Of a stretch of 64,000 nt of DNA, positions 9,464-37,415 are shown piece after piece (position 1 is the stretch's first letter; each line of letters begins with the position of its first letter). The notes beneath the pieces were generated by a model. That model did no database searches. It was not told where the DNA came from and worked only from the letters and a program-made list of their open reading frames with translations. The stretch is from a virus. Position numbers and translations under genes: made by a program. The stretch is taken from positions 10,231 through 74,230 of the IMG/VR virus record IMGVR_UViG_3300017978_000305. One strand, written 5' to 3'.

Positions 9464-10645
9464 ATGATTACTAACACTGGAAAAGGCATTCTTGCCAAAT
9501 ACTTGATTGGACAAGCTCCATCATATGCGTCTTACATTGCTGTTGGTTGTGGGCCTCAGGCAATCAATAGCGAAGATCCTGGCTTTACTACAGAGCAAAA
9601 GGCTGAGTATTCTGCAAAGACTGTACTAGATTTCGAAATGTTTCGTGTTCCAGTAATATCTAGAGGGTATGTCAATGAGGCTGGCTCAGTAAAGCTTATC
9701 TTAACAGCAGAGCTGCCAACAGAAGAGAGATACGAGATAACAGAGCTTGGGGTGTTTTCAGCTGGATCAAATCCATCTGCAGGTGCCTTTGACAGCAAAA
9801 GCGTTTATTCTTTTACTCAGACAGAGGGCTGGGAATATCACACAAGCACTGGCGTTAAAGAGATTCCCACAGTATATGACCCTCTAGATAATGGAGACAA
9901 CATTATAACTGGGGAGTATTCTGTTAATGGTCAGTTTGTGGAAACTCCAGTGTTCCATACAAATGCAGACAACAGAACGTTTACAAATACAGCCAGAGTT
10001 AGCAGAAATGAGCGTTGCCGATTTTTGAATAACATAGTTATGATGGTTGGTAATGACTCCGTGCTTTCTAAGAATCCTGATGGATCAATTGATGTAGAGT
10101 CGGGAAACCACATTCACGTAACCAATGCATCCTTTAACTTTAATAAAAACGCTCCTACCGATGAGCTACGTCTAGCATTTTCGCTTATAAACAAGGGGTC
10201 TAGTTCTGAAACAAGTCCAGACAACGTAAAGATTTTAGTAGAGTTTTCTTCATCTGACACGTCCTCCTCTGGAGAGTACGCACAATTCTATATTGATATT
10301 GATAATGATTCTTTTAACGGAGACGCAGATCAGTCTGCTGACTTTGACTCTAATAGATACTTCGTTGTTTCAAAGCAGCTCCAGGATCTTTACTATACTC
10401 CAGGATTTAACTGGGACCTTGTAACAACTGTAAGGGTGTATGCCTCTGTAGAGTCCAACGGTGCAGCCTCTGATGAGTTCTATGTAGGGCTAGATGCAAT
10501 TAGGCTAGAAAACCTATCTACTAATAATCCACTTTATGGGCTCACTGCCTATTCTGTTGTGAAGACAGATGGAGCACTGCCAATTGTAAAGCTTGCCAAC
10601 ACTTCAAGCTTTATAGAGTTTAGAATTTCTGTGGGTGTGGAATAG
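9464..10645 (+). CDS. Putative tail/baseplate protein
   Basis: 393 aa; N-terminal 'MITNTGKGILAKYL...YIAVG' resembles baseplate/tail-fibre attachment N-termini. Confidence 0.5.
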   Translation: MITNTGKGILAKYLIGQAPSYASYIAVGCGPQAINSEDPGFTTEQKAEYSAKTVLDFEMFRVPVISRGYVNEAGSVKLILTAELPTEERYEITELGVFSAGSNPSAGAFDSKSVYSFTQTEGWEYHTSTGVKEIPTVYDPLDNGDNIITGEYSVNGQFVETPVFHTNADNRTFTNTARVSRNERCRFLNNIVMMVGNDSVLSKNPDGSIDVESGNHIHVTNASFNFNKNAPTDELRLAFSLINKGSSSETSPDNVKILVEFSSSDTSSSGEYAQFYIDIDNDSFNGDADQSADFDSNRYFVVSKQLQDLYYTPGFNWDLVTTVRVYASVESNGAASDEFYVGLDAIRLENLSTNNPLYGLTAYSVVKTDGALPIVKLANTSSFIEFRISVGVE

Positions 10646-34626: not shown

Positions 34627-35436
34627 ATGGGTATGAAAAAAGTAATCGGACTATCTGCGGTAGCACTTGCAGTAGCCTCAATGTTTTCCGTAGCACCAGC
34701 TCAGGCAGATGCTAAGTCACTAGTTGTAATTGATAGCTACTTTGACTCTCGTATTGGAGATACGCCCATTGTATGTGTAACAGGTAACTCTTGCATTATT
34801 GATACAAGAACCAAGAGCACCTCTCTTACTCATCCAGTAAATCATGGCGTGGCTATGGTTGATGCTGTAAAGTCTAAGTTTCCACAGGTAAACGTAATCG
34901 CTCTAAGAGCAGCCGATGCAAAGACAGAGATGAATGTTGGACATCTAGTTTCAGCACTAGAGTGGGCATTGCAGAATAAGGGATCTATCTCAGCACTGTC
35001 TTTATCTCGTAAGATGAATGGACCAGCTCATAACCGTACTGGCTGTGATGCTGCAACTGTAAACACTGCACACCTAGGTGGTAAGGCAGGAGCAGATGCA
35101 AAGGTTCGTTCGCTAATTGCAGAGCTAAGATCAAGCGGTATTCCAGTGTTTGTATCTACTGGTAACGGTCGTGGCAATGTAGTAGATTATCCAGCATGTA
35201 TTGAAGACACTAACTCAGTTTCTACTGGCTCTGAGAACAAGCTTGGCCTACCAGCAAGCGTAGACAAGTTCAATGCAGGCACTGACTACTTTGTATCTAT
35301 TGCAAACAACAAGTTTAGCATTACAGGAATCTTGTTTCCTTCACTGCCTAACACTACATCACTTGCAACTGTCCTAGCAGCTGCAAAATATACTGCAGAA
35401 TCTAACTTGACAAAGTTTATTTCTGTGCTACCATAG
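34627..35436 (+). CDS. Secreted subtilisin-like (S8) protease
   Basis: Signal peptide (AQA); Asp 'VVIDS', His 'NHGV', oxyanion 'STGN', Ser 'NTTSLAT'. Confidence 0.65.
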   Translation: MGMKKVIGLSAVALAVASMFSVAPAQADAKSLVVIDSYFDSRIGDTPIVCVTGNSCIIDTRTKSTSLTHPVNHGVAMVDAVKSKFPQVNVIALRAADAKTEMNVGHLVSALEWALQNKGSISALSLSRKMNGPAHNRTGCDAATVNTAHLGGKAGADAKVRSLIAELRSSGIPVFVSTGNGRGNVVDYPACIEDTNSVSTGSENKLGLPASVDKFNAGTDYFVSIANNKFSITGILFPSLPNTTSLATVLAAAKYTAESNLTKFISVLP

Positions 35437-35448
35437 ATTATAATTAAA

Positions 35449-35515
35449 TAGAGTGACGGAGATCAGGTCCCTGTAACACGAAAGTGTCGATCAAACCCCT
35501 CTCAGGTGAATTCTA
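35449..35515 (+). ncRNA. Glycine-riboswitch-like structured leader (candidate)
   Basis: Closing stem TAGAGT/ATTCTA; internal GGAGA, TAACACGAAAG and CTCTCAGGT signatures; TATAAT at 35439-35444. Confidence 0.3.
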
Positions 35516-35562
35516 GAGTAGTAGCCTGACACCCTGTCCCCAGTGCGTCTTGGGGGACATCT

Positions 35563-35634
35563 TCCTCACTAGCTCAACGGCAGAGCAACGAGCTGTTAAC
35601 TCGTGGGTTCCTAGTTCGAATCTAGGGTGGGGAG
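35563..35634 (+). tRNA. tRNA-Asn(GTT)
   Basis: Acceptor TCCTCAC/GTGGGGA, anticodon arm ACGAG-CTGTTAA-CTCGT, T loop TTCGAAT. Confidence 0.92.
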
Positions 35635-35804
35635 CGATAGAGATTACTACTCTATTACGCTATCGCTACCGTGCGGTGAAATCGGTAGAGGTGTCCAGGC
35701 ATCGGAATCTGGAACAGGCAGAGGTATGTATCTGCTGGGAGTTAGTCCACTTCCGTAGAAAAGGCTCAGAGGCAGAATGGCTCGTAATCATGGCTGTCTC
35801 ACTT

Positions 35805-35872
35805 GGATAGATGGTGTAATTGGCAACACGGCGTTGATCAGCCAGTTGGGAGTTCGAATCTCTCTCTATCCA
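35805..35872 (+). ncRNA. tRNA-like RNA with a shortened anticodon arm
   Basis: Perfect acceptor GGATAGA/TCTATCC+A, D arm GTGT-AATTGGCA-ACAC, T arm GGGAG-TTCGAAT-CTCTC; only 18 nt between the D and T arms. Confidence 0.75.
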
Positions 35873-36014
35873 CAAACAGTAAGTCCCTTCGTAACGGACC
35901 TGGAGTTATATAACACTCAAGGTCGCAGCCCTACGGACTTGCTGGGAGATAGTCTGCGAGCTCAAGGGCTATCTCTAATAGACTTACAACTGCGGTTCGT
36001 AATTGTTCAGCACC

Positions 36015-36043
36015 TTGCAAGAGATTAAGTTGTAAGCTATAAT
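36015..36043 (+). promoter_or_regulatory. Sigma-A/70-type promoter inside the RNA island
   Basis: TTGCAA-17 nt-TATAAT. Confidence 0.7.
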
Positions 36044-36141
36044 AGAGTGCACCACACTTGGTTAATTAAACCTGAGTACAGGCAATAGGTTATCCAGGGT
36101 GCATCCGTCAAGGTTAGTCCACCAGTGTATGCAAACGGCTA

Positions 36142-36209
36142 GGGGTTGTATGGTAACTGGAAGCACTCCAGGTGAAGCCATGTCAAACGGTGCAAATCCG
36201 ACAACCCCA
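36142..36209 (+). ncRNA. Second tRNA-like RNA (degenerate D and anticodon arms)
   Basis: GGGGTTGT/ACAACCCC+A closing stem, T-loop-like CGG-TGCAAAT-CCG, D-loop-like ATGGTAACTGGAAGCAC. Confidence 0.5.
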
Positions 36210-36289
36210 CGATTCTTGCTAGAGACGGGTATGTATGTGCCCACTCATGTGCCTCTACTGCCAGTCACAAAGTCTGGCCGAGAATCATT

Positions 36290-36363
36290 GGCTTCGTAGC
36301 TCAGTAGGTTAGAGCACCACCCTGTCACGGTGGGGGTCGTGGGTTCAAGTCCCATCGGAGTCG
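36290..36363 (+). tRNA. tRNA-Asp(GTC)
   Basis: Acceptor GGCTTCG/CGGAGTC, anticodon arm CCACC-CTGTCAC-GGTGG. Confidence 0.93.
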
Positions 36364-36520
36364 CTCTTTGCAAAGCGGTCCTGAACAACCGTTGTAAAGA
36401 TCGTGTAATTGAAGACTACGGTGTTCCAGCGGTAAGGTTGAGGAGTTCAGCCAACACATCATGCGTCTATGCGAGAACTTAGATTACACAGCCATCAGCT
36501 CTTGCGTGGATGGCAACCAA

Positions 36521-36593
36521 GGTCCGTTGGAGTAGTGGTTATCTCGTCTGCCTTTCACGCAGAAGATCACGGGTTCGAAACCCGTACGGACTG
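36521..36593 (+). tRNA. tRNA-Glu(TTC)
   Basis: Acceptor GGTCCGT/ACGGACT, anticodon arm TCTGC-CTTTCAC-GCAGA. Confidence 0.93.
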
Positions 36594-36608
36594 CTATAAT
36601 ATATACAT

Positions 36609-36682
36609 GCTTCCTTAGCTCAGTTGGCCAGAGCAATCGCCTTGTAAGCGATAGGTCGTCAGTTCGAACCTGACAGGAAGCT
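36609..36682 (+). tRNA. tRNA-Thr(TGT)
   Basis: Acceptor GCTTCCT/AGGAAGC, anticodon arm ATCGC-CTTGTAA-GCGAT; TATAAT at 36595-36600. Confidence 0.93.
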
Positions 36683-36701
36683 CGAAAAGAAAGAGAATAC
36701 C

Positions 36702-37415
36702 TTGCTCATTATTGGTGGCTTAGACATTGGCAACAGACTAGACATTGGTCAAAGAATGATTGAGGCAATTAAAAAGTCTGATCTTGTTTTAGTAGAGAGC
36801 TATAGCCATTTTTCTAAGCTATGCCAAGATCTTTCTATATCCCCATCTGGAGAGGTTATAGAGTACTACGCCCCCATGCCAGAAAACGAAGAACAAAATG
36901 TTATTAGATTAGCTTTTTCATATTTAGAAAATGATAGATCTGTTTTGATTTGCCCAGATGATGGTATGGCTGGGATAGCTGATCCAGGCGGTAGGCTTGT
37001 GGCTATTGCACATGACAAAAAGATTCCAGTAGAAGTTATCCCTGGACCGTCAATCATATCTGCACTGCCAGCAGCTCTTGGAATGGGTGGAAAGTCATTT
37101 ATCTTTGATGATGATATCCCAGGTCCAGACAAGCTTGGTAGAGTTAAGAAACTTGAGTGGATAAAAGAGAGCAAGTCTCCCTACTTATTTTTGGTAAAGA
37201 ACAGAAGAGATGACAACTCTAAGCTAGCAGATATCTTTAATGATATTGAGATTGTTTTTGGAAAAGAGTATCCAGTAGGCATTGGCGTTAACGTCAGCAT
37301 GACAAATCAGGTTATTCTTCGTGGGCCAGTAAGCTTTCTTAAGTCTAAGATTGCCAGCCTAGGAATTAATCAATCGCACTTTGTTTCTATATTAGTCGAA
37401 GGTAAGTATGAATAA
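36702..37415 (+). CDS. RsmI-like tetrapyrrole-methylase-fold SAM methyltransferase
   Basis: 'IGNRLDI', 'DLVLVES', 'DDGMAGIADPGGRLV', 'VEVIPGPS' align with RsmI motifs PIGN..D / D.I.AED / DAG.P.ISDPG / V..IPGPS. Confidence 0.72.
   Translation: MLIIGGLDIGNRLDIGQRMIEAIKKSDLVLVESYSHFSKLCQDLSISPSGEVIEYYAPMPENEEQNVIRLAFSYLENDRSVLICPDDGMAGIADPGGRLVAIAHDKKIPVEVIPGPSIISALPAALGMGGKSFIFDDDIPGPDKLGRVKKLEWIKESKSPYLFLVKNRRDDNSKLADIFNDIEIVFGKEYPVGIGVNVSMTNQVILRGPVSFLKSKIASLGINQSHFVSILVEGKYE

Follow-up and report, generated by a model that had tools for sequence, protein, structure and literature searches.

Candidate structured RNA modules in the spaces between the tRNA genes of an uncultured freshwater phage

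What occupies the spaces between the tRNA genes of a phage tRNA cluster? We examined this question in a stretch of 64,000 nucleotides (hereafter the window; positions 10,231 to 74,230 of IMG/VR record IMGVR_UViG_3300017978_000305), which belongs to a 78.8-kb, ~69% complete record of an uncultured freshwater virus. The locus in question is a 1.26-kb island (35437-36700) which contains four canonical tRNA genes (Asn, Asp, Glu and Thr) and one tRNA-like gene, named here psi. An initial annotation, made from the sequence alone, had observed that the spacers between these tRNAs are full of structured RNA; our analysis confirms this observation and finds the island richer than it was described. In the reading that we prefer, with a probability of roughly 0.7, the island is a phage tRNA operon in which the inter-tRNA slots hold independent small structured RNA genes, several of them tRNA mimics, that would be co-transcribed with the tRNAs and cut out by tRNA-processing enzymes. 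At the level of sequence, the conservation, the modularity, the covariation and the coding strand of these RNAs can be regarded as established.

The island lies between the gene of a 269-aa protein (34627-35436) and a gene of the tetrapyrrole-methylase family (36702-37415). No credible coding sequence is present within it, as the initial annotation had also stated: the short open reading frames (ORFs) that it contains overlap the tRNAs and match no Pfam family. All parts of the island are encoded on the same strand as the tRNAs, and a site scan found no terminator-like sites inside it. Approximately 190 related loci (designated by L numbers) were gathered by means of the upstream protein, the downstream methylase and three DNA patterns. 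The tRNA frame Asn ... Asp ... Glu/Thr is kept across these loci while the content between the tRNAs varies. Close relatives, in which the flanking protein is 73-99% identical, have single modules in common with the window at 75-98% identity, beside segments that are absent from the window. The homology breaks at 35640, 35797, 35878, 35978, 36138, 36210 and 36289, which are module or tRNA edges, and because the breaks fall there we defined nine modules (leader, a, psi, b, b2, c0, c, c2 and d; Table 1). These nine recombining modules replace the four spacers that had earlier been taken as the units of analysis; the 417-nt spacer (35873-36289) is made up of five separate modules (b, b2, c0, c and c2).

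For each of the nine modules, homologues are present in further uncultured phages, frequently in a different inter-tRNA slot. For example, psi lies between Asp and Glu in L018, and c0 together with c follows tRNA-Tyr in L172. Module c is preceded by c0 in the window and by an a-type module in L018, L039 and L140, and a variant form from run X6, another sample, skips c2 (36207-36289). Of the 250 gaps measured between tRNAs of the relatives, 152 are shorter than 25 nt, and further modes are seen at 50-75 and 150-200 nt; such clusters of gap lengths fit discrete inserts. Compact arrays in L001-3, L021 and L027 likewise point to spacers that were inserted into a tightly packed tRNA frame. Judged from this comparison, each module appears to be a separate evolutionary unit of ~65-175 nt, whose helices are probably kept by selection as RNA of the + strand.

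The structural case rests on covariation, as folding energy alone is weak evidence. Comparison of homologous islands, which the initial annotation had named as a check, reveals helices kept by compensatory changes. For module d, a covariance model (CM) was built from 8 sequences and used to re-align 13. The loop of its P1 hairpin, CUGAAC (36381-36386), pairs with GUUCAG (36445-36450), ~60 nt downstream, and thereby forms a pseudoknot that is 100% paired in all 13 sequences and switches to CUGAAU/AUUCAG in L159 and L058. The other helices are P2, GUGUAAU (36403-36409)/AUUACAC (36483-36489), P3, GUUC/GAAC, and a variable 3' hairpin, with P4 as a candidate only. In this alignment 93.7% of the cells are paired, compared to 31-39% when the partners are slid by 1-3 columns, and 14 of the 26 pairs show compensatory changes, a level reached in none of 500 column shuffles. 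Among the stems proposed earlier for this region, GTGTAAT/ATTACAC is upheld by strong covariation, CTTTGCA/TGTAAAG turns out to be a variable outer stem and GCCATC/GATGGC gives way to other hairpins in the relatives. Plain MAFFT alignments of d and the a family left helices out of register, and RNAalifold predicted poor or mixed structures from them; CM-guided or hand-registered structures were used instead. Four more copies of d were found beyond the 13-sequence alignment, complete genomes carry one copy each, and a search of ~170 loci with the CM (R1) returned no members beyond the nhmmer set.

In 15 of 17 loci module d starts 1 to ~15 nt beyond tRNA-Asp, and besides the conserved pseudoknot it keeps invariant single-stranded blocks such as ACAGCC. 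These features would also be expected if some modules, above all d, were cis-acting processing elements, that is, self-cleaving ribozymes or nuclease guides which mature the neighbouring tRNA in the manner of theta ribozymes. The latter are HDV-like (hepatitis delta virus-like) ribozymes located within 5 nt of tRNA 3' ends in gut Caudoviricetes phages (Kienbeck et al. 2024, PMC10879173) and are, like d, structured pseudoknotted RNAs abutting phage tRNA 3' ends. However, theta ribozymes are minimal HDV-like folds of gut phages, whereas the modules of these freshwater phages are 2-3 times longer and do not have an HDV-like topology. A self-made generic descriptor of the nested double pseudoknot (P1-P2-P3-L3-P3'-P1'-P1.1-P4-J4/2(C)-P2', starting at the tRNA 3' end) gave 0 matches in 35437-36700, and no Rfam ribozyme family, the HDV family included, matched at E<=10. 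Moreover, the same tRNA-Asp is directly followed by another tRNA in L001-3, L004 and L021, and d is found after Glu in L037 and after psi in L018. We therefore consider a cis-acting role in tRNA maturation unlikely and retain the reading of independent RNA genes.

Module a is near-identical in L010, L017, L030 and L180. A CM of the window copy (R2) matches a 172-175-nt module at E ~0.01 in ten phages (L020, L018, L140, L043, L138, L039, L183, L171, L182 and L181), which occupies the same slot, 3' of Asn or Gly and 5' of psi or c, and has six hairpins in the same order as window a; the two are probably members of the same family. In these ten relatives 99.5% of the cells are paired compared to 30-48% in the slid controls, and compensatory changes occur in 15 of 40 pairs. 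Hairpin 2 of the ten sequences belongs to an H-type pseudoknot, both stems of which covary, and hairpin 2 of window a is probably one stem of such a pseudoknot. Modules a and d are thus the two that are predicted to contain pseudoknots, neither of which the initial annotation had noted. Five of the six stems that had been drawn for a (CTACCG/CGGTAG, TCCAG/CTGGA, GCAGA/TCTGC, GGGAGT/ACTTCC and GAGGCAG/CTGTCTC) have counterparts with compensatory changes. The sixth, GCGATAG/CTATCGC, is disrupted by the 3' half CCTTCGC of L017 and L010, and the conserved pairing is the competing GATAGAG/CTCTATT.

The non-Watson-Crick cells of the a family comprise 28 G-U against 2 A-C, which points to the folding of an RNA read from the tRNA strand and not of DNA or of the opposite strand. 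This bears on another explanation, in which the modules would act as DNA, either as attC-like folded single-strand recombination sites or as cruciforms that mediate cassette exchange. The cassette-like shuffling with breakpoints at module edges and the palindromic hexamers in the loops of psi (UGAUCA) and of the leader are compatible with such a role. However, the excess of G-U argues for one folded RNA strand; the pseudoknots, a GNRA tetraloop in the leader and the T-loop-like features are RNA motifs; and no integrase was noted beside the island in the annotation of the neighbouring genes. A DNA-level function is highly improbable, and independent RNA genes account better for the modules.

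A tRNA cloverleaf consists of a 7-bp acceptor stem, a D arm, a 5-bp anticodon stem with a 7-nt loop and a T arm. In psi the acceptor, D and T arms are intact, and its 44 bits on the Rfam tRNA model (RF00005) exceed the threshold of 29 bits; the anticodon arm is shortened, being replaced by a 3-bp stem (2-3 bp among homologues) with an 8-nt loop. Across 11 distinct homologues of psi, 97.6% of the cells are paired compared to 45-63% when slid, and 7 of 19 pairs are compensatory; the acceptor, D and T arms covary. The loop contains an invariant UGAUCA (35836-35841), a palindromic hexamer with a GATC site. psi is tRNA-like but is not a decoding tRNA. ARAGORN labels its homologues L182:1974-2043 and L183:2308-2377 as 'tRNA-???' with a two-base anticodon (ga), and such calls show how automatic annotation may mislabel genes of the psi type.

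Module c is formed by an 8-bp acceptor-like stem and a 3-bp arm with a T-loop-like UGCAAAU, which abuts the 3' strand and is followed by A-C. Its nine sequences are paired at 99.4% of the cells (27-46% when slid), with compensatory changes in 6 of 20 pairs. Variation is confined to the closing stem (G-C, C-G or A-U at one position) and to the hairpin CUGGA/UCCAG, and is compensatory. The core of 58 nt does not show any change in the nine sequences, and the flanking protein of their host phages is ~45% identical to that of the window. Together with c0, module c makes up the most conserved element of the island (36044-36210), which the initial annotation had passed over. The 5' part of c resembles, by eye, the D region of psi, and the module as a whole appears to copy the acceptor/T-arm half of a tRNA. 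Module c2 has a layout of the same kind, with an acceptor-like stem stacked on a T-arm-like hairpin; its arms are UAGAG/CUCUA, enclosing GGGUA/UGCCC, and GCCAG/CUGGC, and the inner hairpin changes to GGUUG/CAGCU. Three sequences support the three-way junction which had been suggested at 36211-36286. In contrast to psi, neither c nor c2 matches the Rfam tRNA model at E<=10. The three RNAs psi, c and c2 are predicted mimics of the acceptor/T-arm half of tRNA, and none of them can decode. For c0, RNAalifold on four distinct sequences (the window, L172, L174 and L176) gives 19 pairs, of which 4 are compensatory, and its 3' part allows two alternative pairings. An exact search for a 23-mer of the c core in genome_contigs, a collection with a single genome for each bacterial or archaeal species, returned nothing and hence offers no clue to the host.

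The resemblance of psi and c to tRNAs could also be taken as a sign of non-functional debris, namely decayed tRNA genes, remnants of endonuclease genes or scars of mobile elements with chance hairpins. Such an origin would be in line with the patchy presence and absence of modules among close relatives, with the unremarkable fold z-scores of the leader and a, and with an ORF in the Asn-Asp slot of L004 which looks like a homing endonuclease (a helix-turn-helix (HTH) and a Cys/His motif, described below). However, many helices carry compensatory changes, and the 58-nt core of c is invariant across phages whose flanking protein is only ~45% identical. Apart from psi, no spacer matches the tRNA model at E<=10. 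The search for remnants of the L004 ORF in the spacers was also negative, with a best tblastn E of 3.9 and no Pfam family for the ORFs of the island. We regard debris as very unlikely and independent RNA genes as the better explanation.

Table 1. Features of the tRNA island and its upstream edge (positions in the window).
Feature	Position	Strand	Evidence
Promoter-like TTGACA-16-TACCAT, TG before second hexamer; at end of upstream gene	35407..35434	+	consensus scan
Leader RNA ahead of tRNA-Asn, three hairpins	35449..35562	+	9 distinct homologues (alignment A15)
tRNA-Asn (GTT)	35563..35635	+	ARAGORN, Rfam
Module a, 169-nt RNA, six hairpins	35636..35804	+	homologues; covariation in related family
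psi, tRNA-like gene	35805..35872	+	Rfam tRNA model, 44.3 bits; no ARAGORN call
Module b, branched domain + hairpin	35873..35985	+	homologues L008/L009, L183, L171
Module b2, long hairpin CUUACAACU/AGUUGUAAG	35983..36049	+	homologues L031, L174, L176, L182, L184
Module c0, nested helices UGCACC/GGUGCA, UGGUUAA/UUAUCCA, CCUG/CAGG	36044..36137	+	homologues, RNAalifold
Module c, 68-nt three-way junction	36142..36210	+	9 distinct homologues
Module c2, three-way junction GAUUCUUG/CGAGAAUC	36211..36289	+	homologues in L171, L176
tRNA-Asp (GTC)	36290..36364	+	ARAGORN, Rfam
Module d, pseudoknotted RNA	36365..36520	+	13 distinct sequences in CM alignment A12
tRNA-Glu (TTC)	36521..36594	+	ARAGORN, Rfam
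tRNA-Thr (TGT)	36609..36683	+	ARAGORN, Rfam

The remaining modules are supported on thinner sampling: the leader, b, c0 and c2 are represented by 3-9 sequences and may be seen as probable structured RNAs on that footing. The first hairpin of the leader is ACAC-GNRA-GUGU, the tetraloop of which varies only at N (GAAA, GCAA, GUAA). The second has a covarying stem, CUCAGG/CCUGA, that becomes CUGAGG/CCUCA and UGGUG/CAUCA, and its loop (35514-35519) is a palindromic hexamer reading UCUAGA, CUGCAG or CUAUAG in different phages. The 3' hairpin has the conserved loop AGUGCGUC. RNAalifold on the nine leader sequences gives 21 pairs, 3 of them compensatory, and the leader is absent from several close relatives. 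The palindromic loops of psi and of the leader could allow kissing dimers or protein binding. In module b, a domain closed by AGUAAGUCC/GGACUUGCU is followed by the hairpin GAGAUAGUC/GGCUAUCUC. All four stems suggested earlier for b were recovered by RNAalifold on four sequences, with 7 of 30 pairs compensatory. Module b2 overlaps a promoter-like TTGCAA-17-TATAAT (36015-36043), the TATAAT of which is kept in L174 and not in L176.

Are these RNAs members of known families? Rfam 15 was scanned at gathering scores over the whole window and at E<=10 over 35300-36800, and the significant matches were the five tRNA hits only. The description of the RNAs as undescribed is thus borne out by this check, since the spacers match nothing in Rfam 15 apart from psi on the tRNA model. 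Other listed matches are far below their thresholds and mostly on tRNAs; sR60, inside d, scores 15.6 bits against 50. No Rfam 15 match near the gathering threshold was found for GOLLD, ROOL, riboswitches, self-cleaving ribozymes, tmRNA, RNase P RNA or 6S. The initial annotation had placed the island beside GOLLD, ROOL and tRNA-associated ribozymes, a link that gained no support: there is no Rfam match to them at E<=10 and no HDV-like topology. A glycine riboswitch in the leader was rejected, given no Rfam match at E<=10 over 35449-35562 and conserved hairpins unlike the aptamer architecture, and impressions of cobalamin-, purine- and c-di-GMP-like elements at 36150-36210 were dropped as they have no Rfam support. 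Among known phages, blastn of the island against 50,697 phage records matched the tRNAs only.

Since the modules sit in a tRNA array and include tRNA-like ones, we also considered whether they are Y-RNA-like partners of a phage Ro60 protein (Rsr/TROVE or DUF2828-vWA). Y RNAs (YrlA, RF02553, bound by Ro60/Rsr) have a tRNA-mimicking domain, as do some of the modules, and matches of 18-22 bits to the YrlA model occur in this record. However, Y RNAs also have a terminal Ro-binding stem and a Ro60 gene. Searches of the 78.8-kb record and of five relatives (two of them 95-100% complete) with TROVE (PF05731) and DUF2828 (PF11443) gave nothing at E<=1, so this phage and its complete relatives appear to be without a Ro60-type gene. 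The 5' and 3' ends of a and d form no long terminal stem of the Y-RNA type. The YrlA matches, the best of 22 bits against a threshold of 69, fall on tRNAs, and the same model matches 13 of 14 control genomes. The Y-RNA explanation is close to refuted, and the modules are better read as RNA genes of their own kind. Structured spacer RNAs in phage tRNA arrays are hence not bound to the presence of Ro60.

A closer parallel by setting is found in phage T4. It has been reported that the T4 tRNA region yields RNAC and RNAD (the species 1 and 2 stable RNAs), the roles of which are still unknown (PMC3014915), with Northern validation in a further study (PMC9697503). Like the modules, they are small RNAs other than tRNAs whose genes lie within a phage tRNA cluster. 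In T4 there are two, whereas about nine modules are present in this island and differ from one close relative to the next; the likeness is drawn from the setting. The general kind, non-tRNA small RNAs in phage tRNA operons, is therefore known; these families, their number per island and their cassette-like exchange are new.

How would such RNAs be made? As all parts lie on one strand, no terminators were found and the module edges are tRNA edges, co-transcription followed by release through tRNA enzymes would be the simplest mechanism. The whole island would be transcribed together with the tRNAs. Host RNase P would cleave 5' of every acceptor stem, whether of a tRNA or of a tRNA-like module; psi, c and c2 would supply additional RNase P sites through their acceptor-like stems, and the remaining ends would be trimmed by host nucleases that process tRNA 3' ends. 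The modules may in this way be released as discrete stable RNAs, as are T4 RNAC and RNAD; it is their position and orientation that suggest co-processing with the tRNAs. They might then act in trans on the machinery with which the host handles RNA, for instance as decoys or tRNA mimics. A trans-acting accessory role is our best guess, because the modules are dispensable in some relatives, are tightly constrained where present and include three tRNA mimics.

Evidence on expression is slight. A freshwater metatranscriptome holds a 179-nt contig identical to 35939-36117 with no cover of the flanking genes, which is a weak hint of expression. The even cover of the island in run X6 was dropped as evidence of expression, the run being flagged as probably DNA, and from the raw reads of run X21 nothing was placed. 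A promoter-like region (35407..35444) is present at the end of the upstream gene and includes, after the TTGACA-16-TACCAT of Table 1, a TATAAT box at 35439. It is not evidence of function, because promoter-like sites are not enriched (4 compared to 1.8 +/- 1.3 in shuffles). For the same reason, three TATAAT boxes that had been thought to subdivide the island do not do so convincingly, and only the one at 36015-36043 has a matching -35 hexamer. What survives of the earlier idea of a cassette of undescribed phage non-coding RNAs is that the RNAs are structured, have no Rfam family and have homologues; its subdivision by TATAAT boxes and its link to ribozymes gain no support.

Several points weigh against the reading of independent, co-processed RNA genes. 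Relatives with compact arrays (tRNA gaps of 0-25 nt in L001-3, L021 and L027) carry none of these RNAs, so no module is essential. The single-sequence fold z-scores, a shuffled control of the kind that the initial annotation had suggested, are lower for 35873-36289 (-3.2) and d (-2.2), but the folding energies of the leader (+0.33) and of module a (-0.38) are no better than those of shuffles. The alignment of d is biased towards the model structure, having been made to fit it, and related sequences can beat column shuffles without structure, which makes the slid controls the stronger test. The homology of a to the L020-type module rests on a CM E of ~0.01 together with slot, length and layout, and nhmmer with the window copy alone missed it. 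Sampling of b, c0 and c2 is thin (3-4 sequences), and b2 is a candidate judged by its long hairpin and five homologues. The 179-nt contig might derive from carried-over DNA or from a relative, and neither RNA ends nor levels can be read from contigs.

It is conceivable, although rather unlikely, that c, with its 58-nt invariant core, or d, which is pseudoknotted and travels with tRNA-Asp, has a new biochemical activity, either as a self-cleaving or tRNA-processing ribozyme class or as a tRNA mimic that would inactivate a tRNA-targeting defence or an RNA-repair enzyme of the host. If so, phage tRNA arrays would be a general nursery where tRNA genes give rise to RNAs with new functions, which are exchanged like cassettes. 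Annotations of phage tRNA clusters usually list the tRNAs and treat the spacers as junk; here a single island gives about nine RNA families without an Rfam match. These provide targets for RNA biochemistry (cleavage, RNase P recognition, and ligand or protein binding) and for phage-host work on decoys of tRNA-directed defences, as well as new covariance models for the annotation of viral metagenomes.

The window encodes a terminase, tail proteins, a DnaB-like helicase, a large DNA polymerase and a ribonucleotide reductase, nearly all on the + strand. The GC content of most modules is 47-53% (b2, 39%), compared to 39-43% in the flanking genes and 42% in the window. The 269-aa upstream protein is conserved and adjoins the island in all these phages. 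Its best PHROG match is 'protease' (E 1e-9), it has no Pfam family, and its invariant motifs D-S-Y-F-D, N-H-G and T-S-x-A are, by eye, reminiscent of a subtilisin-type protease. The RsmI-like methylase gene is directly 3' of the island here and in L001-3. Other relatives carry an M23 peptidase gene in that place, and for this reason the methylase has no fixed link to the RNAs.

The relatives also hold inserts that are absent from the window. There are two or more further inter-tRNA module families, one of ~187-192 nt (L010:5223-5408, L019:4914-5099, L031:3986-4175, L093:4112-4303 and others) and one of ~198 nt (L008:3153-3350 after Asn; L019:5335-5532 and L010:5485-5658, both after Asp). The Asn-Asp slot of L004 (6036-6434; the same as in L092 and L177), where the window holds modules a to c2, contains a 132-aa ORF with an N-terminal HTH (sub-threshold Pfam matches) and a C-terminal CxxC...H...N...CxxCH, which gives it a homing-endonuclease-like look; it is bordered by repeated gaTATAATt motifs. 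A 185-aa ORF is present between tRNA-Glu and tRNA-Thr in L024 (5286-5843), L025, L026 and L027 (2101-2658), with a weak RNase_T/exonuclease Pfam match in L027, and is another example of the tRNA array as an insertion hotspot.

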